From IMG/VR virus record IMGVR_UViG_3300032675_001827, positions 10,605 to 74,604 of that record: a stretch of 64,000 bases of DNA; one strand, 5' to 3'. The number at the start of each line of letters is the position of its first letter. Position 1 is the stretch's first letter. Positions 1 through 55,612 of the stretch are shown here, piece by piece. This stretch comes from a virus. The notes under the pieces are model-generated. The model had not been told where the DNA came from and ran no database searches. It worked only from the letters and a program-made list of their open reading frames with translations. Made by a program: the position numbers and the translations under genes.

Positions 1-600
1 TAACTGAAGAAGGTCTTAGTAGTATCATCATGTCTAGACGCAATAAAGTAGTTGCATTTGATAAAGAGCTTGGCAAAAAAGTCAGCATTACAAAGGCAGA
101 ATTTATTGCCAATCCTGCTCGATTTGTTGGCAATACAAAAGGCTATAGGGTAATGAAAACTCTAGACAACACTGTTGTTGTTGTTGGAGTTGACGATACT
201 AGCAATCTAGTCGGAGTAACCCGCGGCCAGAGAAAAGCTCTAACCAATGATGGTAAAACCGTTATGGTTTCGGTAGATGATCCGCGCTTCTTGACCGGAG
301 AACTTCGGTCTGTGAACAAAGGTAAGGTTATTGTTAAAGATACCAATGGCAATAAATTTGCAGTTGATCAATCTGATCCAAGGCTAACATCCGGAGAATT
401 AGTCGGTGTAGCTTCTGGTAAACGATATAAGCATAACAAGAAGCGACCGCAGGTTACATGTCCACATTGTTCAAAACTAGGAGATGCGTCAAATATGCAA
501 AGATGGCATTTCGATAGGTGCAAAAATCGTGTTAAGATATAGTCTGAGCTTGCATGAAAGTGCAAGAGGTTGGGATAAAGAGCCCAATGATAACACACTG
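1..600 (+). mobile_element. 3' part of a group I intron interrupting dnaK (5' part lies upstream of the window)
   Basis: Canonical S element AAGATATAGTCT at 534-545. It is followed by a P9-like hairpin CTTGCAT-GAAA-GTGCAAG, a second hairpin TTGGG..CCCAA, and a terminal G at 600. The next bases GAA GAC TTT GAC (EDFD) continue the DnaK motif LGG|EDFD. Confidence 0.88.
3..542 (+). CDS. Intron-encoded homing endonuclease, C-terminal part (repeated DPR.L.GEL DNA-binding units and a CPHC..RWHFDRC Zn finger)
   Basis: The frame is open back to the window edge, so the ATG at 30 is probably internal. The stop TAG lies inside the intron S element. The C-terminal CPHC...HF..C motif is typical of phage HEGs. 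Confidence 0.75.
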
Positions 601-1764
601 GAAGACTTTGACGAGCGTCTTGTTAATTACATGGCAGACGATTTTAAAAAGACTAACGGCATAGACTTACGCAATGACAAACTGGCTTTGCAGCGTCTAC
701 GCGAATCAGCTGAACGTGCCAAAATTGAACTGTCAAGCACAACAGAAACAGAAGTAAACATTCCATATGTTACTGCTGACGCAAGCGGTCCAAAACATCT
801 TTTGTTAAAAATTTCAAGGGGTAAATTTGAAAGTTTAATAAGCGATCTAATTGAAAGAGCTATAGCTCCTTGCAAAGCTGCACTAGCCGATGCTGGTTTA
901 AAGCCCGGTGACATAAAAGAAGTTATTCTAGTTGGTGGTTCAACACGTATTCCTGCAATTCGCAATGCTGTTAAAAACTTCTTCGGTAAAGAACCTAGCA
1001 ATGCTGTAAATCCTGATGAGGCCGTTGCCATAGGAGCTGCCATTCAAGGTGGTGTTCTTCAAGGTGACGTTAAAGATGTACTACTTCTTGACGTTACACC
1101 TCTTTCACTTGGTTTGGAAACATTAGGCGGAGTGTTTACACGATTGATAGATCGGAACACTACTATTCCAACAAGAAAGAGCCAGGTTTTTTCAACAGCA
1201 GAAGACAATCAAAATGCAGTTACAATAAGAGTTTTCCAAGGGGAACGCGAAATGGCTGCTGATAACAAGCTTCTTGGGCAATTTGATTTAACAGGTATAC
1301 CGCCTGCACGCAGAGGAACACCTAAAATCACTGTCACCTTTGATATTGATGCTAATGGAATTGTTTCAGTAAGTGCCAAAGATGAAGCAACAGGAAAAGA
1401 GCAACAAATTACTGTCACTGCAAACGGTGGACTGTCAGACGAAGACATTCAACAAATGGTAGCCGATGCTGAGAAAAATAAAGCAGCTGACCAGGCTAAA
1501 AAAGAAATGGCAGACGCACGCAATGCAGCACAGGCCGCTATTAATTCAGCTGAACGTCAAGTTGAAGAAGGTGAAGATCTTGATCAAAATCTAGTAGATC
1601 AGCTGAATGCTGCTAAAGCAGAACTGCAGAATCTACTAAATGATGACGCTGTTGCTTTAGATCAATTACGAGAAGCAAGCAGTAAACTGATTAATGCATC
1701 AATGGCTCTTGGTCAAAGTCAGTATCAAACAATTAATCCAGAAACGGCTTCAACTGAGCAATAA
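601..1764 (+). CDS. dnaK: Hsp70 chaperone DnaK, 3' exon
   Basis: [71 protein letters not shown]. The first 39 aa of the tracked ORF 484..1764 are intron sequence. Confidence 0.95.
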
Positions 1765-1765
1765 T

Positions 1766-1797
1766 AAAAAAGGTGTAGCTAAAAACTACACCTTTTT
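1766..1797. terminator. Bidirectional intrinsic terminator between convergent dnaK and the release-factor gene
   Basis: AAAAAAGGTGTAG-ctaaaaa-CTACACCTTTTT hairpin with A and T tails. Confidence 0.85.
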
Positions 1798-2488
1798 ACC
1801 ATAATAAGTCAATCATTCCTTTTGACAATTGTCTTGTGTTAATAGTTTTATTATTTCTATGATCACAAATTTCATCATGCTGTAAACGATAGGTGCGTAT
1901 TTTATCACCTCTCTGGCCAGACCCAACTTGTGCCTTTTTTTCTGAGCTTATTTTTTCATGCTGCTGTATACCAAAGTATTGTCGCAGTTTAGCAGTTAGA
2001 TCGTTTTTAGCTTGGGTATAACTAGTTTCTCTACTGCGAGTCTGAGCCGTAACTGTGATTCCAGTTGGCGTATGGGTAAGCCTTATACTATTCTGATGTT
2101 TATTTCTGTGCTGGCCTCCTTTACCTGTACCGCTGAACCACGATAAACTTAGATCTTTTTCATCTAATACAAACTCATTGGTCAAGTTTGGATCTATAAC
2201 ACTAACGGTAACAGTACTGGTGTGCACTCTACCTTTTTTCTCAGTAGGTGGCACACGTTGCCATCGATGACCTCCGGCTTCTGCTTCAAGTTTTTCTAAA
2301 TTTTGTCCTGAAAATTCAAGTGAGATGGCAAAATTGCCGTGCCCTTTTGTGCTGGGTCTCACATCTGCCCAGCGGCACTTTCAACCAACTCTGGTTGCTA
2401 GATTAAAATAGATGTCTGCTAAATCTTTAACTAACAGCTGACTATCAGCACCGCCTTCGGCAGCGTGTATTTCTATTATTCTACGCAT
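1796..2488 (-). CDS. Minimal class I peptide chain release factor, RF1-like (PPT and GGQ motifs), with an in-frame TGA at codon 36
   Basis: SD AGGAG then ATG at 2488 gives MRRIIEIHAAEGGADSQLLVKDLADIYFNLATRVG*KCRWADVRPS..., in frame with ORF 1796..2362. That ORF has EAGGHRWQRVPPTEKKGRVHTS, GKGGQHRNK and RGDKIRTY. The TGA is at 2381-2383. Confidence 0.88.
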
Positions 2489-2553
2489 GCTACGTCTCCT
2501 TTTACATGGTTTCTATACTATTTAATTATTGTCTAAGAATGTCAAGAAAAGAC

Positions 2554-2959: not shown

Positions 2960-2988
2960 TTGGCTTATCGGAGTTAATGCTGTATAAT
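2960..2988 (+). promoter_or_regulatory. sigma70-type promoter placing +1 at or near the ATG at 2995 (leaderless)
   Basis: TTGGCT-17 nt-TATAAT, with ATG 6 nt downstream. Confidence 0.6.
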
Positions 2989-2994
2989 TTGCAT

Positions 2995-3084
2995 ATGGAT
3001 AAAGTAGAAATGGATAAAGTAGAAATGGATAAAGTAGAAATGGATAAAGTAGAAATGGATAAAGTAGAAATGGATAAAGTAGAA
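2995..3084 (+). repeat. Perfect tandem repeat, 6 x 15 bp (ATGGATAAAGTAGAA)
   Basis: Read directly from the sequence. Confidence 0.97.
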
Positions 3085-3483
3085 ATCATATTCAAAAAAC
3101 AAATAGCTAATTCTCCGTGTATGGCAATGATGTTACAAGCTCATGCTGAACTAATTGAAAAAAGCTGGGCAATGAATATACTTCCGTTTGGGCATAAAAG
3201 CAGTTGCATTTATGCTCAAATTGAAAATGACATTGCAGGTGCTATAGTTTTTATTTTTGACCCTGATATTGAAGTTGTACACACTCAGTTATCCTATGTG
3301 AAACCACAGTATCGTGGCCGGCGCATATACCAGTCAATGCACAAATACCTGCATGATTATGCACGTAAAGTCGGAGCGCATAGAATAACCAGTACAGTTC
3401 ATATAGACAATCAGCCACTTTTGCAAGCAAGTACACGAAGCGGCATGACTACTCGCTGGGTTGCACAGATTTTAGAATTGTAA
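2995..3483 (+). CDS. GNAT family acetyltransferase with an N-terminal (MDKVE)6 repeat
   Basis: YVKPQYRGRRIY (acetyl-CoA motif A) and VHIDNQP. Confidence 0.75.
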   Translation: MDKVEMDKVEMDKVEMDKVEMDKVEMDKVEIIFKKQIANSPCMAMMLQAHAELIEKSWAMNILPFGHKSSCIYAQIENDIAGAIVFIFDPDIEVVHTQLSYVKPQYRGRRIYQSMHKYLHDYARKVGAHRITSTVHIDNQPLLQASTRSGMTTRWVAQILEL

Positions 3484-3484
3484 T

Positions 3485-4459
3485 ATGGTTACACTTTCAT
3501 ATACAAATAGTTTTAAATTTGGCTATAACGGTGAGTGGTTCAACTCACGAGTATCAAAAAATGACCAATGGATGACACAGTATGATCCAATTGAAAGACC
3601 TGTAGTTGATTTTGGAACAGAGTGTATAAACACAGCAAAATTAATACGTGAAACAGCTACTGGTCCGATAGATGTTTTGTTTTCAGGTGGACAAGACAGC
3701 GAGGTGTGCTTAAACGCATTCTTGCTAGCAGGGATATCTGTTAATGTATTAATCATGCGTTTTAAAGATGGGTTTAACGCATTTGATACAGCTTATGCAA
3801 CCAAATATTGTCAAGCACACAATATTGAACCAATTTATGTAGACCTGGATATTTGTAAATTTTTAGAAACAGATGCCTGGGATTATGCTGCACTTACGCA
3901 GTGCACCTCTCCGCCGTTGTTACCTCATTTGTGGCTAATAGATCAAAGCGATCACTATGTGGTAATTGGGTCAGGTGATGTTTTTTTGTATAAAAATATT
4001 TTAATTGCTCAAGGCACAGTACCAGATACAGAATTTTACACAATTAACCAAAAGATTACACCTAAAACAACGTTTGATAACAAATGGTATTATAGGGAAC
4101 ACGAGTCAATTGCAGCATTGCATCGTCTGTTTATGTTACGTAATAGAGACGGATGCCCAGGATTTTTCCAGTACAATCCTGAGCTAGTTCTAAGTTGGCT
4201 AAATGAACCAGAGGTCAACAGAGACTTAAGTGGATCAAATGACAGAGTCAGTACACTGTATACCAAATACGAAATTTATCAAAGGATTTGGCAGATTCAA
4301 AATAGACCTAAATTTGATGGATTTGAAATAGTTCGGCATGCTGTCAGCATTCCAAAAATGCGGCAGAGTTTGGAAACACAGAATGCAGATTTCATGCAAA
4401 CCTACAAAGTACAAGTTGACGATTTGCGCAAACAATTACAAGGCGATATAAATGGATAA
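3485..4459 (+). CDS. Phage protein with a PP-loop-like SGG.DS motif (adenine nucleotide alpha-hydrolase-like)
   Basis: VLFSGGQDSE, then RPKFDGFE near the C-terminus. Confidence 0.55.
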   Translation: MVTLSYTNSFKFGYNGEWFNSRVSKNDQWMTQYDPIERPVVDFGTECINTAKLIRETATGPIDVLFSGGQDSEVCLNAFLLAGISVNVLIMRFKDGFNAFDTAYATKYCQAHNIEPIYVDLDICKFLETDAWDYAALTQCTSPPLLPHLWLIDQSDHYVVIGSGDVFLYKNILIAQGTVPDTEFYTINQKITPKTTFDNKWYYREHESIAALHRLFMLRNRDGCPGFFQYNPELVLSWLNEPEVNRDLSGSNDRVSTLYTKYEIYQRIWQIQNRPKFDGFEIVRHAVSIPKMRQSLETQNADFMQTYKVQVDDLRKQLQGDING

Positions 4460-11692: not shown

Positions 11693-13834
11693 ATGATGAA
11701 GATTAACGCGACAGAAACGGCAATTGTCGAGCGCAATGGTATTGCATCTGATGGTGCATTTACTATTCAGTTCAATGCCAAAATGGCTAAGATCCTCAGC
11801 GATGGTCTTTACAGCGATAAAATTCAAAGCATCATTCGCGAACTTACCTGCAATGCTATTGACAGTCATGTTGAAGCCGGCAAGGCAGATGAACCAATCG
11901 AAGTCCATCTTCCTACCATTTTTGAACCATGGTTTTATGTGCGAGATTTTGGCGTAGGACTTGATCACGAGCAGGTGATTAAGATTTATACCTGCTATGG
12001 AGCATCTACAAAAACAAATTCAAATGAATTTATTGGACAGCTTGGGCTAGGCAGCAAGAGTCCGTTCTCATATGTAGATGCCTTTGACGTTACAGCACGT
12101 AAAAACGGCATTGAACGGCAGTATTCAATGTATAAAAATGAAGAGGGCATGCCTAGCGTTGCTCTTTTGCACGAATCTTCTACAACAGAACCCAACGGCA
12201 TTACTGTCAAAATGCCTGTCATTAATGGGGATTACAACCGATTTATTGACAAAGCCAGGCAGGTATTTCGCTGGCTGTCAGTTAAGCCTCTTGTAACAGG
12301 TGTTAGTGAGTTTTCTGTTATGCCTGTTGAAAACATGTGGGAAGGTGATGGGTGGGCTGTTCGTCGCAAGAGTATTGACAGCTACTACAATTCAAGTGCT
12401 AATTTTGCTGTTGCACTTATGGGAAAAGTTGCATACCCTATTGCAAGTAATAGTATTTCAAATCTAACCGATGTGCAGCGAGCTGCGTTGTCGTTACCTA
12501 TCACGTTGACGTTTGATATTGGCGAACTTGACGTGGCCGCCAGTCGTGAAGCACTTGGCTATAATGCCTATACTCAACAAAATATCAAAAACAAGCTTGA
12601 TGTAGTGGTGCGCGAGATTGGTAAGGTATTTGAGGAAAAGGTTTCTAACGCCAAAACTGAATGGGAGGCACGAGAGCTCTTTGGAAGGATTTTTGATCGA
12701 AGCACTGGCTTTCGTCATGAACTGGAAACAATTTATGGCAAACAAGGTCTAAATTGGCGAGGAATCGTAATTAAAAACAATTATATCGAACTTGATACCA
12801 GTGAGCTATGGGATAAAAGTATTACTCCCGGAGTATACAGTTTTCTTGGTGGTTACAAGAACCTGCGACAGTTCACCTATCATGATAAAATTGCTTTTCG
12901 GTGTTCCAGCCAGATTCGGATTGTATTTGATGACATGCCTGTTGGCGGCAAAAACCGCATGAAATATTTGCGTGAATGTGTAGGCCCTGATCCGGATATC
13001 TTCTATTTGGAACCAAGCCCGCTCAAAACTGTTGAAGAAGTCGCTGCAATGCTTGGTAATGCACCTTACACGTTTACCAGTATGCTTCCTAAGAAGCCGG
13101 CTGAAAAGCGGGAACGTGTGCACATGCTGCGGTTTACTGGTTATGATAAAGCAAAGAAGGCTTGGGCGCCCGTTGATATTGAAATTGATGACGGCGGATT
13201 TTATGTGCAACTGTCACATTACGATGTGATGGACGGTGAGCAGGTTCATAGCAATTTTGAGAGCACAATTCAATGGGCACAAAAATGCGGAATTATCTCA
13301 AGCGATACTGTCATTTATGCTCCTCGATATGGATTGAAGAATAAAGTTGCTGAACACGACGATTGGGTTGAATTTTTTGGCTGGTTGCGTAATCAAATCA
13401 CGCAGAAGCTCAGTGTAAAAGTTGCACAAATCGCCGCAGACAGTCATGAATATAGGCAATTTACCGCAAATATGCGTGACAAAACGCTTTGGCAGTCGCA
13501 TATGCAACTTGTCACAGCCAACAGCCTGTTTGCCAGGTTTAGATCAGCAATGATGCTGCTTGAAGCGAAACATCAACAAGCAGATAAAAACGAAGCACTT
13601 GTTTCTCTAGCACTACGGTTTGGGCATGATACCAACAAAGTTCCGCCAAGCGAAAATGTCCATCAACTGTGGGAAATGATCAAACAAGTTTATCCTATGT
13701 TGCCATTGGCACTAGATCGGTATGGCTATTCAGCATATGGCAATAATCAGCACGTTATCAACTATATCAACATGGTTGATAAAATGACTGAAGTTTCTAT
13801 AGAAACAGCAGTGTCAGACGTAATTAACGCTTGA
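11693..13834 (+). CDS. rIIA: rIIA-like protein (N-terminal GHKL/Hsp90-type ATPase)
   Basis: LYSDKI..IIREL.CNA.DSH, VRDFGVGL, YGASTK, IGQLGLGSKSPFSY, SREAL.Y; lies next to rIIB. Confidence 0.88.
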   Translation: MMKINATETAIVERNGIASDGAFTIQFNAKMAKILSDGLYSDKIQSIIRELTCNAIDSHVEAGKADEPIEVHLPTIFEPWFYVRDFGVGLDHEQVIKIYTCYGASTKTNSNEFIGQLGLGSKSPFSYVDAFDVTARKNGIERQYSMYKNEEGMPSVALLHESSTTEPNGITVKMPVINGDYNRFIDKARQVFRWLSVKPLVTGVSEFSVMPVENMWEGDGWAVRRKSIDSYYNSSANFAVALMGKVAYPIASNSISNLTDVQRAALSLPITLTFDIGELDVAASREALGYNAYTQQNIKNKLDVVVREIGKVFEEKVSNAKTEWEARELFGRIFDRSTGFRHELETIYGKQGLNWRGIVIKNNYIELDTSELWDKSITPGVYSFLGGYKNLRQFTYHDKIAFRCSSQIRIVFDDMPVGGKNRMKYLRECVGPDPDIFYLEPSPLKTVEEVAAMLGNAPYTFTSMLPKKPAEKRERVHMLRFTGYDKAKKAWAPVDIEIDDGGFYVQLSHYDVMDGEQVHSNFESTIQWAQKCGIISSDTVIYAPRYGLKNKVAEHDDWVEFFGWLRNQITQKLSVKVAQIAADSHEYRQFTANMRDKTLWQSHMQLVTANSLFARFRSAMMLLEAKHQQADKNEALVSLALRFGHDTNKVPPSENVHQLWEMIKQVYPMLPLALDRYGYSAYGNNQHVINYINMVDKMTEVSIETAVSDVINA

Positions 13835-13858
13835 CATTAACATAAACACTGCTACACT
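13831..13858 (+). promoter_or_regulatory. sigma70-type promoter of rIIB
   Basis: TTGACA-16 nt-(TGC)TACACT, then SD AAAGGAG. Confidence 0.65.
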
Positions 13859-13893
13859 TACAACGCAACAACAGCTCAAAGGAGAGCAACACA

Positions 13894-15057
13894 ATGACAA
13901 TTACTGCAAGTATCGTTGGGCCTACGTTTGTTACCGTCATGGTAAACGGACAAACCCATACTATCAATTCAGATCATGCGAATTACAATAAAATTCGTGA
14001 AGCACTGAAAACCAAAGATCTTGATTTGGTTGAAAAGCTTATTAACGTAGCGAAGGCTGTAACAAAATACGTAGCTGGGCGAGTTACTGTAGTCGGCGAT
14101 AAGGTCATGTACGGCGACCATGAAGTCAAAGGCAGTGTTGTGCAGCGCATCATTGCCATGCTAAATGAAGGATTTGATGCAGAGCCAGTTATCAAGTTTC
14201 TTGAAAATCTCATGTCTAATCCATCTAAGCGTGCAGTTGACGAGCTTTACGGCTTCCTAGAAGCAACATCACTGCCTATTACCGAAGATGGTTGTTTCCT
14301 TGCTTACAAGAAGGTAAACAATGATTACATGGATTTCTATACCAGGCGTATTAGCAACAAGCTAGCAAGTCTTATGTCTCCACAAGAGCTTGCTGCACTA
14401 CCAGTTACTGTGGGCAATGTCACTACTGAAGTTGTAAATGGTGTAACCACACTAAGTATGCCTCGCAATCAAGTGGATGACGAGCGTGATCGCACTTGCT
14501 CATATGGTCTGCATTTTTGCAGTCTTTCATATTTGCCACATTATCACGGTGGTGCCGGCTGTGTTCTAATTGTAAAAATTAATCCAGCGGATGTTGTTAG
14601 TATTCCATCGGATTACAACAATGCAAAAGGACGCACATGTCGCTATGAAGTAATCGGTGAACATACTTCAGAATACTCCGAAGCCTGGACAAAGCCAGTA
14701 TGGGTAGATTCAACTGATGATCTTGACGATGACATCGGTGAAGATGAAGATGATCAGTTTGATAATGGATATGATGCTGGCCAGTTAGCTGCTGAAAATG
14801 CAAGTAATGCTCTCAGCGCATATGACGCTACACCTCCTTCTGGTAGTTCTACAAGTTTTGTAAGGGGTTACGTAGAAGGCTATGCCGGTAATTATCGTGT
14901 TGACTGGTATGATGTTGGTTATGCAGCAGGTCAAGACGATGTAAATGATTCTAACAGTTACGAAGATTTGGTACCAGCTGCATGCGATGACTCAAATCAG
15001 TATCGCGAAGGCTATGCAGATGGCTGGCGTGATGCTAAAGTTGAAAAACTAGGTTGA
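13894..15057 (+). CDS. rIIB: rIIB-like protein with an acidic C-terminal Y..GY..G repeat tail
   Basis: NPSKRAVDELYGFL, ITEDGCFLAYK, CSYGLH, KINPADVVSIPSDYNNAKGRTCRY. Confidence 0.88.
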   Translation: MTITASIVGPTFVTVMVNGQTHTINSDHANYNKIREALKTKDLDLVEKLINVAKAVTKYVAGRVTVVGDKVMYGDHEVKGSVVQRIIAMLNEGFDAEPVIKFLENLMSNPSKRAVDELYGFLEATSLPITEDGCFLAYKKVNNDYMDFYTRRISNKLASLMSPQELAALPVTVGNVTTEVVNGVTTLSMPRNQVDDERDRTCSYGLHFCSLSYLPHYHGGAGCVLIVKINPADVVSIPSDYNNAKGRTCRYEVIGEHTSEYSEAWTKPVWVDSTDDLDDDIGEDEDDQFDNGYDAGQLAAENASNALSAYDATPPSGSSTSFVRGYVEGYAGNYRVDWYDVGYAAGQDDVNDSNSYEDLVPAACDDSNQYREGYADGWRDAKVEKLG

Positions 15058-16605: not shown

Positions 16606-17319
16606 ATGAATATTGATCAACGTCAATTAGACTACTTGCGCACATTACGTATACATTTTTGCATACCTTGTTATGGCGGTATGCTAAATGAATGTTTTTT
16701 TATTAGCATGCTAAAGTTCATGGCAGCAGCTAATCAATTGCATTTACAATTTACAATTGACACAATGGTCAATGAAAGCCTAATTCCCCGAGGGCGTAAT
16801 AGTTTGGTAGCTAAATTTCTAGCATTTGAACCAAAAAGCACCCACCTTATGTTTATTGATAGCGATATCGGGTTTGAGCCAGAAGAAGTGATAAAACTAA
16901 TGTTAGCTCAGAAAGATGTTGCTGGAGGACTTTATCCAAAAAAGGCTCTTCCGGTGCAGTATGTGGTGAACAAAATTCCAAACAGTTCAAAAGAAGGCAA
17001 TTTAGTTGAAGTTGCTAATCTTGGTACAGGATTTATGTTAATTAAACGTGAAGTTATTGAAACACTAATTCGTGCAAAACCAGAACTACATTATCAAGAT
17101 GCGATTGGTCTTGACGAAAAATATTCACCTTATAAATATGCTTTGTTCGATACTCTTATCGATCCTGTAACAAAGGAGTATTTAAGTGAAGACTATTATT
17201 TCTGTAAATTGTGGAGAGAGATGGGAGGAAAAATCTGGGCAGATCTTACCATCAAACTTGATCACGCAGGATACTACAAGTTCGGAGGAGATGCAACACA
17301 ACTTGCTCCTCACCTGTGA
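16606..17319 (+). CDS. Phage glycosyltransferase-like protein (GT-A fold)
   Basis: PCYGG, NESLIPRGRN, HLMFIDSDI (DxD), GTGFMLIKR, SEDYYFC. Confidence 0.7.
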   Translation: MNIDQRQLDYLRTLRIHFCIPCYGGMLNECFFISMLKFMAAANQLHLQFTIDTMVNESLIPRGRNSLVAKFLAFEPKSTHLMFIDSDIGFEPEEVIKLMLAQKDVAGGLYPKKALPVQYVVNKIPNSSKEGNLVEVANLGTGFMLIKREVIETLIRAKPELHYQDAIGLDEKYSPYKYALFDTLIDPVTKEYLSEDYYFCKLWREMGGKIWADLTIKLDHAGYYKFGGDATQLAPHL

Positions 17320-19180
17320 TTGTATTAATTGGGTAATATCAGAAAATACAAAACTAAGAGTATCATATGATAATTTGAAGAATGGTCCGTTTGGACCATT
17401 CTTCAAATACCTTTCTGATTTACTACATACCACAGAACCTAGACAGTTGATGTGGCATGTTATACACGAAAACATTGCCCCCGCATTATGTAAGTGTGGT
17501 TCCCCACGTAAATGGGTTAAAAACAATAATGATTATAGATATACCTGTGGCCCAAAATGTGCAGGCGCTGAGAAATCTAAAAAGAAACCTAGAAAACCTA
17601 AATTTCTAAAAGGATTGTATTATAACGATCCAGATCGACTTGCAGCAGCTTTGAAAAAACGTCAGGAAAATAGTTTAGAAAAATATGGCACCGATTGTCC
17701 AACAAGCCGGACCGAAGTGTATGAAAAAAGAAAAAAGACAAATCTAGAAAGATATGGAGTAGAGCATCCATTTCAAAATTTAGAAGTGCAGACTAAGGCT
17801 GCAACCACTTTTAAAGAAAATCACAAAAAGGGCAGTGAAAATCATACCAATCTTATAGATAAACGAACAAAAACCAGTATTAAACGATATGGCACTGAAC
17901 ATCCTATGCAATCTGATCTGATAAAGGATAAGCAACATGCAACTATGATAGATTTATATGGCAATTCGCATGCACTATTAGTACCAGAATTGAATAATAA
18001 ACGTAAAAGGACAAATTTAGAAAAATTTGGTTGTGAAGAAGCTATCGCATCATCAGCAGTTAGACAGAGTATTTCGACTTCTAATCAAGCCAAATATGGT
18101 GTTGATAATTGGACGCAAACTTTATATTCCGATTATACAAAAGAAATATTGTTTGATCCTTCAAAATTTGAAATAACATTGTCAGGAAAAACATTAGATG
18201 AATCGCGAGATTTATTACAGGTATCGTTACGAACAATATTAAATTTTGCATCGAAATACAGTCTTAGACATATATTCTCTAGAGTTAAAACAACATTAAT
18301 AGAAGCTAAAATAGACAATCTACTATTTGAACATCTCGGAAATACCGGATATATACGAAACAGTAAATCAATAATTCCGCCAAAAGAATTAGACTTCTAT
18401 ATAGACCGTTATAAATTAGCAATTGAAGTCAATAGATTATACTGGCACAGTGAACTAGGTGGTGCATCACGTGATAGAAATTATCATATAAATAAATGGA
18501 AGATTTGCAACGAAAAAAATATCACACTATTACAGTTCAATAGTATCGACATCGAGAATAACTGGCATATTGTAGAATCAAAAATAAAAAGGCATATTGG
18601 TGTACCAATACAAGTAATAGGTGCAAGAAAACTATCTATACAAGTATTGTCTGATACTAAAATTGAACGAGAATTCTTAAATCAATGGCACCTACAAGGT
18701 GCAACAACTAATCGCAATTTCATCATCGGAGCATATTATGAGAACAATTTAATTGGAATCAGTACATGGAAATATATTGGTAATAAAGCAGAGTTAGTTA
18801 GATTTGCTACAAATATAAATTTCAGTTTTCCAGGTCTACTTTCAAGAATGATTAAACGATTTATTCAAGAAACAGGATTTTTTGGAAAACTATTGAGTTA
18901 TTCTAGTAATAATCACGGTGATGGCAAGGTTTATAGAGCGTGTGGATTTACATGTGACGGTAATACTGCTCCAGGATATCTTTATACATGTGACTATCTA
19001 CATCTAGAATCAAGAGTTAAATATCAAAAACACAAATTGCAAAAAATGTTTAATTTGACTGACGAGCAGATTAAAATGAAATCTGAATGGGAAATTATGC
19101 AAGAGCAAGGTTACGATAGAATTTGGGATTCAGGAAACACCAGATGGGTGAAAATAGTAGGATGTGGTGATGCGCAGTAG
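17291..19180 (+). CDS. Putative homing endonuclease: Zn ribbon, (E/K)(K/R)YG repeats, PD-(D/E)xK/Vsr-like nuclease and C-terminal GNAT-like domain (start uncertain)
   Basis: CKCG..TCGPKC; repeated T.LE(K/R)YG.EHP; ELDFYI...LAIEVN.LYWHS; FLNQWHLQG, ELVRFAT, G.VY...GF, RIWDSG. Confidence 0.7.
   Translation: MQHNLLLTCDCINWVISENTKLRVSYDNLKNGPFGPFFKYLSDLLHTTEPRQLMWHVIHENIAPALCKCGSPRKWVKNNNDYRYTCGPKCAGAEKSKKKPRKPKFLKGLYYNDPDRLAAALKKRQENSLEKYGTDCPTSRTEVYEKRKKTNLERYGVEHPFQNLEVQTKAATTFKENHKKGSENHTNLIDKRTKTSIKRYGTEHPMQSDLIKDKQHATMIDLYGNSHALLVPELNNKRKRTNLEKFGCEEAIASSAVRQSISTSNQAKYGVDNWTQTLYSDYTKEILFDPSKFEITLSGKTLDESRDLLQVSLRTILNFASKYSLRHIFSRVKTTLIEAKIDNLLFEHLGNTGYIRNSKSIIPPKELDFYIDRYKLAIEVNRLYWHSELGGASRDRNYHINKWKICNEKNITLLQFNSIDIENNWHIVESKIKRHIGVPIQVIGARKLSIQVLSDTKIEREFLNQWHLQGATTNRNFIIGAYYENNLIGISTWKYIGNKAELVRFATNINFSFPGLLSRMIKRFIQETGFFGKLLSYSSNNHGDGKVYRACGFTCDGNTAPGYLYTCDYLHLESRVKYQKHKLQKMFNLTDEQIKMKSEWEIMQEQGYDRIWDSGNTRWVKIVGCGDAQ
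17373..17408. repeat. Perfect 16-bp inverted repeat (hairpin) in the 5' end of the endonuclease ORF
   Basis: ATTTGAAGAATGGTCC-gttt-GGACCATTCTTCAAAT. Confidence 0.85.
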
Positions 19181-24381: not shown

Positions 24382-26643
24382 TTAAATCTCGTTGTTTACT
24401 AATTCAATATCTTGCTGTTGAAAATTGGTTTCAATTATGTGATGTACTAGATTTCCATTATCAGCTGTGAATAAAACTCCGCCGCCATTTTTAAGTTTAC
24501 CAAATAAAATTTCTCTGCTCAAAGGCTTTTTAACGTGCTCCTGCATGACTCTTGCCAATGGGCGTGCACCCATGTTTTTATCAAACCCTTTGTCAATCAA
24601 CCATTGCTTGGCTTGTGCATCAAATGCAATAGTTACACTCTTATTTTGACTTAGGTCATTGAGCTGATTGATAAATTTATCTAGCACTTTGACCATGCTA
24701 TCTTTTGTCAATCTGTTAAAATGAATAGTAGCGTCAAGACGGTTGCGGAATTCAGGAGTAAACCACAACTTGACTGCCTCTTGCCCTGCATCATTGCGTT
24801 CTGAATTACCAAAGCCAATTGAATTTTTTTCCATATCTGAAGCACCGAGATTTGATGTAAAAATCAAAAAGACATTGCGAGCGCTTGCAGTTTTACCTGC
24901 TTGACTGGATATCATTCCGTTGTCCATTACTTGTAAGAAAATAGATACAATATCTGGATGGGCTTTTTCAATTTCGTCGCATAAAATAACTGCATGAGGA
25001 TGTTGTTCTAGTTCATTTATGAGAATTCCAGATCCTGCCGAACCGTCGCCGTAACCTACATAACCGGGCGGCGATCCGATAAATTTGCTGACGCTGTGTT
25101 TTTCCATAAATTCACTCATATCAAATCTTATAAACGGGATATTAAGAGTAGCTGCCAATTGTTTTGCAATTTCTGTTTTTCCTACTCCTGTTGGTCCGGC
25201 AAACAAAAAGGATCCAAGTGTTTTGTTACCTTCGCGTAGACCAGATTTACTGATCAGTACAGCATCTGTTAGATTTAATACAGCTTCGTCTTGACCAAAA
25301 ACGGTAGATTTTAGTGTGTTTTCCAATTGTTCAAGATCAACTATCTCTTGTTCACTATCTGATTTGATAGGTATCTTAGTCATCTGACTGATTTCATAGG
25401 CTATTTCCTCAGTACCAATGCTTTCAACACGTTCATGTAAAGGTTTAATTTTCTGTCGTGCGCCTGCTGAATCTACTATGTCAAGTGCTTTGTCAGGCAA
25501 GCGTTTATCATGTATATATTTTACGCTTAAGTCAACTGCGCTGTCCAAAGCAGCTTTGGTGTAATTTACACCGTGAAATTGACTATAGTATTCACTTAGA
25601 GCATTTACAATGGTTTTAGAATCTTTGATTGATGGTTCTAGTACATCAATACGTTGAAATCTACGCATCAATGCGCGATCTTTTTCAAAATGTTTGCGAA
25701 ACTCTTCTTGTGTTGTACTGCCAATGCACCGAATATCACCTCTGCTGAGTGCAGGTTTGAGCAGATTAGCTGCATCCATTGCACCGTTGCTGCCGCTGCC
25801 GGCGCCCATAATCATATGAATTTCATCAATGAATAAGATTGCATGTGGAAGTGCAGTAAAAGCTGAAATAATGTTTTGCATACGTTCTTCAAAATCACCT
25901 CTAAATTTTGTACCAGCTATTACACTGCTTATATCTAGGCTATAAATGATTTTGTCATTTAGTGTATCAGGAACTGTGCCTTCAACAATATTCTTGGCCA
26001 AACCCTCTACTATCACTGTTTTTCCAACACCCGGATCGCCTAGAAGAATGCCATTGTTTTTATGCCTTCTAGCCATGATCTGTGTAATTTTTAGAATCTC
26101 AGTTTCTCGACCAATCAATGGATCAATTTTCTTTTGTTTTGCTTTTTCATTGAGATTCACACAGTAATGTTCTAGAATTTCGCGAGCTTCTTTAATATTT
26201 GTAGTTGTTTGCTGCTGACTTTTTGTCTTTTGCAACAGTGATAGAACAATTTCTTTCTCAAGACCTGCTGCATTTAAAAAATATGATGCATGGCTATTTT
26301 CGATGTTGAACATAGCGAGAAATAGATCCATACATCCCATATCACTGCGTGAAGAAAAAATGGTCTGAGTTTTGGCTTTTTTAACTGCTGTTAGCAGCAG
26401 TGAAGTATGACGCGGTTGATAAGATCCGGTTTTCACTAATACATGATTAGTTGCATCATGAATGTAAGCACGAACATCATCGGTTAATTTTTTAAGATCT
26501 CCTGATGCTTGTGTTATTAAGGCTTGAATATCCTCTAACTCTAACAGAGCCATCAAAAGATGTTCTAAGGTAACAAATTCGTGCCTTAATCCAGCAGCAA
26601 TTATATAAGCACGCTTTACAACATCTTCAAAACTATTTTGCAT
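24382..26643 (-). CDS. clpA: ATP-dependent Clp protease ATP-binding subunit ClpA
   Basis: HEFVTLEHLL, IDPLIGRE, GDPGVGKT, FRGDFEER, LFIDEIH, GPTGVGKTE, RFDMSEF, PPGYVG, DEIEKAHPD, PEFRNRLD, MGARPL; no ClpB middle domain. Confidence 0.93.
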   Translation of the reverse strand: MQNSFEDVVKRAYIIAAGLRHEFVTLEHLLMALLELEDIQALITQASGDLKKLTDDVRAYIHDATNHVLVKTGSYQPRHTSLLLTAVKKAKTQTIFSSRSDMGCMDLFLAMFNIENSHASYFLNAAGLEKEIVLSLLQKTKSQQQTTTNIKEAREILEHYCVNLNEKAKQKKIDPLIGRETEILKITQIMARRHKNNGILLGDPGVGKTVIVEGLAKNIVEGTVPDTLNDKIIYSLDISSVIAGTKFRGDFEERMQNIISAFTALPHAILFIDEIHMIMGAGSGSNGAMDAANLLKPALSRGDIRCIGSTTQEEFRKHFEKDRALMRRFQRIDVLEPSIKDSKTIVNALSEYYSQFHGVNYTKAALDSAVDLSVKYIHDKRLPDKALDIVDSAGARQKIKPLHERVESIGTEEIAYEISQMTKIPIKSDSEQEIVDLEQLENTLKSTVFGQDEAVLNLTDAVLISKSGLREGNKTLGSFLFAGPTGVGKTEIAKQLAATLNIPFIRFDMSEFMEKHSVSKFIGSPPGYVGYGDGSAGSGILINELEQHPHAVILCDEIEKAHPDIVSIFLQVMDNGMISSQAGKTASARNVFLIFTSNLGASDMEKNSIGFGNSERNDAGQEAVKLWFTPEFRNRLDATIHFNRLTKDSMVKVLDKFINQLNDLSQNKSVTIAFDAQAKQWLIDKGFDKNMGARPLARVMQEHVKKPLSREILFGKLKNGGGVLFTADNGNLVHHIIETNFQQQDIELVNNEI

Positions 26644-43886: not shown

Positions 43887-49904
<6,018 letters not shown>

Positions 49905-50320: not shown

Positions 50321-55612
<5,292 letters not shown>

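Follow-up and report, generated by a model that had tools for sequence, protein, structure and literature searches.

Release-factor genes provide the textbook example of regulatory recoding, by way of the prfB frameshift: in the gene for RF2 an SD-like element and the sequence CUU UGA C, located at codon 26 in E. coli, give an autoregulatory +1 programmed frameshift. UGA is also read by tRNA-Trp, e.g. in synthesis of the phage Q-beta A1 protein and at leaky UGA-A contexts in E. coli. PrfH (RF-H), whose partner is RtcB2, is a release-factor homologue without domain 1, the region of RF1 (~100 residues) that contacts RF3 and the L11 stalk.

According to Atkins et al. 2016 (PMC5009743), no RF2 or RF1 gene is known to have an early stop codon in its own frame. 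A giant-virus eRF1 gene, which is expressed via readthrough and frameshifting, is the sole termination-factor gene cited in that review as needing readthrough (ref. 349 in PMC5009743). In E. coli the main determinant of UGA readthrough is the contest of RF2 with the Trp-tRNA-Trp ternary complex, and extra tRNA-Trp raises it (PMC10570021). The TGA-recoded Jade phages described by Borges et al. (10.1101/2021.08.26.457843) have a code-change module consisting of RF1, TrpRS and tRNA(UCA). Al-Shayeb et al. (PMC7162821) and Borges et al. both refer to RF1 and RF2 genes in phages but make no mention of an internal stop, and the full-text literature outside subscription journals yielded no account of a phage release factor with such a gate.

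The window, i.e. the whole stretch of 64,000 nucleotides that was analysed, is the terminal 64 kb of a linear virus record that is 74.6 kb long and that CheckV rates as 18% complete, thus implying a phage of roughly 400 kb; the public runs holding this phage are freshwater/lake metagenomes from 2016 to 2023. Read directly on the minus strand, an AGGAG (2500-2496) precedes the ATG (2488-2486) at which the gene starts, and 35 sense codons, reading MRRIIEIHAAEGGADSQLLVKDLADIYFNLATRVG, are followed by an in-frame TGA at codon 36 (2383-2381), beyond which the zero frame is open for another 194 codons, to a TAA (1798-1796). The translated downstream frame holds PPT (2251-2243), GGQ (2119-2111) and KIRTY, and the product of reading through the TGA, hereafter the gate, has 230 residues, with GGQ at residues 124-126. 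The features of the locus are as follows.

2517-2545, minus strand: promoter-like site TTGACA-17-AATAGT (10/12 matches in a consensus scan; a pattern match only)
2496-2500, minus strand: Shine-Dalgarno AGGAG, 7 nt 5' of the ATG (read directly)
2384-2488, minus strand: first 35 codons, encoding a strand and the long domain 2 helix that bears the AAEGG tip (translation, AF2, dN/dS ~0.10)
2381-2383, minus strand: in-frame TGA at codon 36, the position of the conserved GW-motif Trp, i.e. the gate (translation, 1RQ0 alignment, 160/160 loci)
2339-2378, minus strand: predicted stem-loop beginning 2 nt 3' of the TGA (GUGCCGCUGGGC ... CCCAGC ... GGCAC; folding)
1799-2380, minus strand: the other 194 codons, encoding the rest of domain 2 with PPT, domain 3 with GGQ, and domain 4 (profiles, AF2, dN/dS ~0.14)
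1796-1798, minus strand: true stop TAA (sequence)
1767-1797, minus strand: intrinsic-terminator-like hairpin (14-pair stem) and T run, common to the convergent Hsp70 gene

Judged by its profile matches, motifs and predicted fold, the product is an RF1-type class I release factor comprising domains 2-4, in which PPT is the motif for codon reading and GGQ that for catalysis. Pfam gives PCRF at 84 bits (profile positions 103-194 of 194 only) and RF-1 at 71.7 bits, and the best NCBIfam match is to RF1 (TIGR00019/NF001859), over profile positions 107-322 of 347, at 187.8 and 184.3 bits, which are under the equivalog cut-offs of 400 and 423. The scores for RF2 (115.9 bits, cut-off 370), PrfH (52.3 bits) and ArfB (17.5 bits) likewise leave none of RF1, RF2, PrfH and ArfB at its curated cut-off. 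Because the profile matches start at 107/347 (RF1) and 103/194 (PCRF), domain 1 is missing; the promoter-like site and SD lie directly upstream of the ATG, and the whole 74.6 kb contig has no second PCRF match and nothing domain-1-like elsewhere. The product aligns to residues 88-303 of Thermotoga maritima RF1 (1RQ0), and in this alignment the stop falls on the GW-motif Trp. In an AlphaFold2 model (mean pLDDT 87.3) residues 2-9 form a strand and 14-34 the long domain 2 helix, position 36 opens the next strand, and the best fold matches are ribosome-bound RF1 chains (TMq 0.83). The initial annotation, which described an SD, an ATG and 35 release-factor-like codons running into a TGA and onward in the same frame, is borne out on the minus strand; its placing of the stop at the conserved Trp of RF1/RF2 agrees with the 1RQ0 alignment, its statement that no frameshift is needed with the unchanged frame at the TGA, and its description of a 230-residue protein without domain 1 with profile matches that begin past that domain.

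Membership of two related families was considered and rejected. Like PrfH, the product has no domain 1 and is of similar size; unlike PrfH, its RF1 codon-reading motifs are intact, its fold match to PrfH (TMq 0.65) compares with 0.83 to RF1, it scores 52.3 bits with TIGR03072, whose cut-off is 166.65, and there is no pairing with RtcB, which is absent from this contig and from three of four complete relatives; G000, G001, G002 and G006 are without it, and in G003 it is >220 kb distant from the release-factor gene. Membership of the RF2 (prfB) family fails on the missing SPF motif, on the score (115.9 bits versus 370) and on the unchanged frame, the prfB cassette occurring in sister clades only.

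The codon-reading stretch, WQRVPPTEKKGRVHTS, is of the RF1 type (QRVPPTE..GRVHTS; the counterpart in 1RQ0 is VQRVPVTE..GRIHTS), and a comparison of 26 sequences shows no variation at P81, T82 and E83. From these elements the product is predicted to read UAA and UAG and should not read UGA; going by the established structure and function of RF1, it probably works without RF3, since domain 1 is missing. These features bear on whether the short factor might, through broadened specificity, read UGA and shut off its own synthesis, as in prfB. Relatives do carry the cassette that serves autoregulation in RF2 genes; the codon-reading elements are, however, RF1-type throughout (QRVPPTE..GRVHTS), the product has no SPF motif, and RF1 scores 188 bits against 116 for RF2, such that autoregulation of this kind is very unlikely. 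Each of five complete relatives has one RF-1-domain gene, and therefore no phage RF2. With RF1-type codon-reading elements in the product and no RF2 encoded by the phage, any regulation at the gate would be cross-regulation rather than autoregulation.

The gate is conserved to a degree that chance could not remotely explain. Two scans of IMG/VR, the first giving 69 unique sequences including that of the window and the second at least 27 further unique ones, found TGA at the same codon in 160/160 homologue loci, which are 46-100% identical and lie on contigs of up to 524 kb; a Rhodospirillales-binned contig of 245 kb also has TGA at the gate codon. In the 47 pairs whose synonymous change is not saturated, dN/dS comes to ~0.10 over the 35 codons before the TGA and to ~0.14 over those after it; when all homologue pairs are taken, synonymous change has reached saturation. 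A maximum-likelihood tree groups the TGA-at-Trp genes in a single clade (SH-aLRT 99), distinct from bacterial RF1 (98), which implies a single origin of the gate in this clade and its retention ever since; the 160 loci are thus not 160 independent events, even though their synonymous sites are saturated. That the TGA is kept in every related copy checked indicates a built-in control point, not damage. An in-frame stop kept across diverged homologues, with same-frame purifying selection downstream, is the pattern by which programmed readthrough is recognised, and the comparison of homologues thus shows that this phage, which uses the standard code, has in its RF1-type gene without domain 1 a programmed UGA gate that is under selection. 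The initial annotation had set as its test that homologues keep the stop, with purifying selection on both sides, and had named, among the outcomes that would speak against it, homologues that all have TGG; the former was observed (TGA in 160/160, dN/dS 0.10/0.14, independent assemblies in agreement) and the latter was not.

The same data dispose of the proposal that the TGA is an artefact or a sign of decay, whether through erroneous sequencing, a nonsense mutation of recent date, a pseudogene, a code in which TGA is Trp throughout the genome, or selenocysteine. One TGG-to-TGA transition would suffice to produce it, and some database entries, from short contigs, carry W at the gate site. Independent assemblies, by contrast, retain the TGA: it is kept in two (X18 and X19) from further lake-metagenome studies, of 2022 and 2023, one of which represents a variant strain that has 9 nt inserted at 1733 and is substituted at 2476, and it is conserved at all 160 loci. 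TGA is, moreover, a frequent genuine stop, terminating 20/71 ORFs on the contig (ATGA start/stop overlaps included) and 301/758 neighbour ORFs in related phages, and the release-factor gene alone among the genes of the contig has an internal in-frame TGA. A genome-wide reassignment of TGA (code 4 or 25) was rejected on these grounds, with 20/71 ORFs ending in TGA and a single gene with an internal one. Against selenocysteine, the gate position is a conserved Trp rather than a Cys/Sec site, and the tRNAs observed with anticodon UCA are of ordinary type, 77 nt long.

The entries with W are most likely accounted for by how such genes are called. In a protein search covering 5.8 billion sequences, the closest relatives are ORFs of 186-190 residues that start just past the stop position, and full-length forms of ~222 residues with W at the gate site come only from ~1 kb contigs. 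Since the clusters containing the W forms also contain many halves, of 35 and of 166-172 residues, from long contigs, the W-bearing proteins most likely reflect code-4 gene calling. To the extent that sequence data can decide the matter, artefact or decay is already refuted. Searches of cultured and deposited phages gave no match by megablast with the first 12 kb of the window and, by tblastn, only relatives of <40% identity.

The start sites bear on a different proposal, that the 35-residue peptide and the C-terminal fragment are separate products, or that only the 188-residue ORF from the GTG at 2362 is functional. Gene callers indeed list ORFs of 35 and 166-190 residues apart. Among the 69 unique sequences, however, no restart codon or SD is conserved after the stop: the first in-frame start follows it at distances that range from 4 to 148 codons and is preceded by an SD-like motif in just 8/69, whereas such a motif precedes the gene's own start in 58/69. 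The upstream codons are under strong same-frame purifying selection, and the first 35 residues are a strand and helix inside domain 2 in the AF2 model. Production in two pieces, or by restart, is thus highly improbable.

The reading that we favour, at a probability of roughly 0.6, is that the UGA is subject to programmed readthrough as Trp, giving the full RF1-type factor in a yield set by Trp-type tRNA versus host RF2. Most ribosomes would probably stop at codon 36 through the action of host RF2, giving a 35-residue peptide. A fraction would decode the UGA with a Trp-tRNA, either the near-cognate host tRNA-Trp(CCA) or, where present, a phage tRNA-Trp or tRNA(UCA); insertion of Trp would restore the native residue, hence the full factor. 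The yield would then reflect how Trp-type tRNA stands against the activity of host RF2, not the level of the product itself. We infer that readthrough occurs, and likewise its efficiency, Trp as the inserted residue, its dependence on RF2 and the role of the factor for the phage. The gate context, GG(C/T) TGA A, differs from that of genuine stops: the +4 base is A in 58/69 unique gates (84%) versus 52/153 genuine TGA stops (34%; Fisher 2e-12, kinship uncorrected), and T in 0% of gates versus 24% of genuine TGA stops in the same phages (phylogeny likewise uncorrected).

Dependence of the yield on RF2 is extrapolated from E. coli, and the prfB-type devices in sister clades point the same way. 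Outside the clade of the window, short RF1-type genes have two in-frame TGAs (a Bacteroidetes-binned contig, LR745206 and LR756501), a single TGA at a different early codon (LR756502 and LR756504), or an SD-like element with CTT TGA C/G and a +1 frame change (Hydrogenophilales, Myxococcales and Acidobacteriota MAG contigs, and the huge phage LR745208; loci L089, L095 and L217 carry such prfB-style cassettes). These devices occupy the same early region, at or near the gate site of the window; all 16 further gates inspected, at 11 gated loci, are TGA, never TAG or TAA, and only one ungated short RF1-type gene was encountered (LR756511). The prfB-type cassettes, being RF2-responsive in the one studied system, suggest that a contest with RF2 is at work here too. 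The initial annotation had proposed that the gate opens when host RF2 is limiting or when a suppressor tRNA is present. The replacement, in sister clades, of the readthrough site by a prfB-type +1 cassette that competes with RF2 lends indirect support to the first of these routes, and the anticodon-UCA tRNA encoded by two of seven near-complete relatives lends it to the second. Of its overall proposal, readthrough with cross-regulation, the selected, programmed UGA gate is upheld by the comparison of homologues, and cross-regulation stays a proposal, to be set against that of a fixed attenuator.

According to the latter, the UGA caps a potentially harmful factor at a few percent without conveying regulatory information, UGA having been chosen since the product itself would terminate efficiently at UAG/UAA. 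Such a cap would account for a gate that is always UGA, never UAG/UAA, and would make any sensing apparatus unnecessary. The predicted RNA structure 3' of the gate also bears on it. The 76-nt stretch folded for the stem-loop at the gate of the window has a predicted MFE of -24.9 kcal/mol (z = -1.89). Family-wide, the minimum of predicted folding energy falls just 3' of the stop, with a mean z, from mononucleotide shuffles, of only ~-1.0. A common 7-bp helix after the stop is not supported (60.6% of cells paired versus 58.9% in shuffled sequences; covariation not significant), and RNAalifold finds no consensus over the family region after the stop. A family-wide 3' hairpin is thus an unproven lead rather than a finding, and the weakness of the 3' structure, without covariation, would itself suit a fixed attenuator. 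A weak start site would, however, be a cheaper means of limiting synthesis, yet SD-like motifs and ATG starts are retained, and in clades independent of this one the gate has been remade, either with two UGAs or with cassettes of the prfB type, which in prfB respond to RF2. Overall, a fixed attenuator appears unlikely. Folding energy is also low over the codons for AAEGG (2449-2437 in the window; family-wide 99-81 nt 5' of the TGA), a second such stretch that reads, e.g., GCCGCCGAAGGCGGC in many relatives; it may simply follow from the amino-acid sequence.

It may also be that the gate acts as a timer, with the UGA closed until phage tRNA(UCA) or extra tRNA-Trp builds up, so that the factor is made from a set stage of infection at any level of RF2. 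Suppressor-tRNA timing has been proposed for recoded phages (Borges et al., 10.1101/2021.08.26.457843), and among the seven near-complete relatives two encode tRNA(UCA). G001 has one (G001:C1:190515-190588; L222:1469-1545), of 77 nt, whose anticodon loop resembles that of tRNA-Trp and whose discriminator is G73, with no tRNA-Trp(CCA) seen in that genome; G006 has two in tandem, also of 77 nt (L224:1333-1409 and 1469-1545), beside the tmRNA. Genes for tRNA-Trp(CCA) are present in G002, G003 and G005. The pattern search gave no match to tRNA(UCA) in G004, G005 and G007, its restrictive pattern meaning that absence is not implied, and the 2/7 count, which counts against a timer, is to be read with the same restriction. 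Further, TGA terminates about half of the sampled ORFs in both G001 and G006, which would make an efficient suppressor costly, and the frameshift gates of the sister clades need no suppressor tRNA. ARAGORN detects no tRNA in the window or on the contig, which represents only ~18% of the genome, so that this point against a timer is a limited one; in the three relatives scanned in full the tRNA sets amount to 55-60 genes. The scan for suppressor tRNAs proposed in the initial annotation was thus negative for the contig itself, within that ~18%, and positive among relatives, for UCA in 2/7 and for CUA in G002 and G003. A timer is rather unlikely; in those relatives that have tRNA(UCA), the opener may be their own tRNA rather than a shortage of RF2. 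A sensor of RF2 activity, a timer run by phage tRNA and a fixed attenuator are not separated by the sequence data.

Both complete relatives G002 (L204:3792-3865) and G003 (L211:1130-1204) encode an amber-type tRNA(CUA). Its presence alongside an RF1-type factor expected to terminate at UAG is an apparent conflict.

In relatives the gene is most often accompanied by an AAA_33 P-loop kinase, a metallophosphoesterase of calcineurin-like type and a weakly matching DSP-phosphatase-like protein (e.g. L008:1670-2185, L030:3653-4273 and L048:2299-2886), a set reminiscent of RNA end-healing enzymes; none of these flanks the gene in this window. Two genes away, a 324-residue ORF (3485-4459) has a weak QueC-like (PP-loop) match, and a GNAT acetyltransferase (2977-3483) adjoins it. 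The convergent Hsp70/DnaK gene, which starts on the contig just 5' of the window and ends within it, is in two ORFs, broken exactly at Pfam profile position 223/224, with a 355-residue homing-endonuclease ORF (phrog_314) between them (L001:9382-10059, L001:10079-11146 and window 484-1764). No group I intron was found at the split at Rfam gathering thresholds, at which nothing else was detected on the window or the upstream 12.5 kb either. Elsewhere the window encodes an rIIA/rIIB pair (11693-15057), a 664-residue HNH/homing-endonuclease ORF with DUF7487 (17186-19180), a ClpB-like double AAA+ protein (24382-26643, minus strand), and ORFs of 1985 and 1761 residues (43947-49904 and 50327-55612) with collagen triple-helix repeats, the second ending in a Peptidase_S74 chaperone domain; these last two are likely fibre proteins.

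Set against the described systems, programmed readthrough at the gate would resemble prfB regulation in that an early in-frame UGA lies in a class I release-factor gene, with termination by RF2 competing with a recoding event. It differs in that the zero frame continues, with no frameshift, and in that the product is RF1-type, such that the regulator would be host RF2. The proposed competition between a near-cognate Trp-tRNA and RF2 is as for Q-beta A1 and other leaky UGAs, whose A-rich 3' context matches the TGA A of the gate. By contrast, cases of the Q-beta A1 type extend a complete protein C-terminally, whereas here the stop sits inside one folded domain, at a native Trp codon; the terminated product would be a useless 35-mer, and readthrough would restore the ancestral residue. 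The giant-virus eRF1 is also a virus-encoded termination factor whose expression needs stop-codon recoding; it is, however, of eukaryote type, from an amoeba virus, and unrelated in fold family and mechanism, and eRF1 reads all three stops, so that the loop can be self-referential. The Jade modules likewise bring together a phage RF1-type factor and, as in some relatives here, opal-decoding tRNAs; those modules are in the standard code with no internal stop, and they serve phages whose late genes are TGA-recoded, whereas in the present phages TGA ends 28-50% of ORFs.

The available evidence is thus that a design held to be unknown for bacterial RF1/RF2 genes (PMC5009743), simpler than that of prfB and consisting of an early stop in the same frame that is passed when termination is weak, is present across more than a hundred distinct sequences of this huge-phage family. 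The twist is that, of the three stop codons, the gate is UGA, the only one its own product is expected to be unable to read. For annotation, the consequence is that gene callers break these genes into ORFs of 35 and ~166-190 residues, or wrongly apply code 4. The family offers a natural and testable system for the tuning of UGA readthrough by tRNA-Trp in bacteria, and also bears on the role of a domain-1-less RF1 on the ribosome and on how huge phages manipulate host termination. Tentatively, and as a proposal that is more likely wrong than right, the gene may be part of a stop-codon balancing circuit in standard-code huge phages, in which an RF3-independent RF1-type factor would be made only when host RF2 loses at UGA, so shifting termination to UAA/UAG, with phage tRNA(UCA), tRNA(CUA) and tRNA-Trp as the toolkit. 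Were this so, the phage would reset the reading of each stop codon during infection without recoding its genome.
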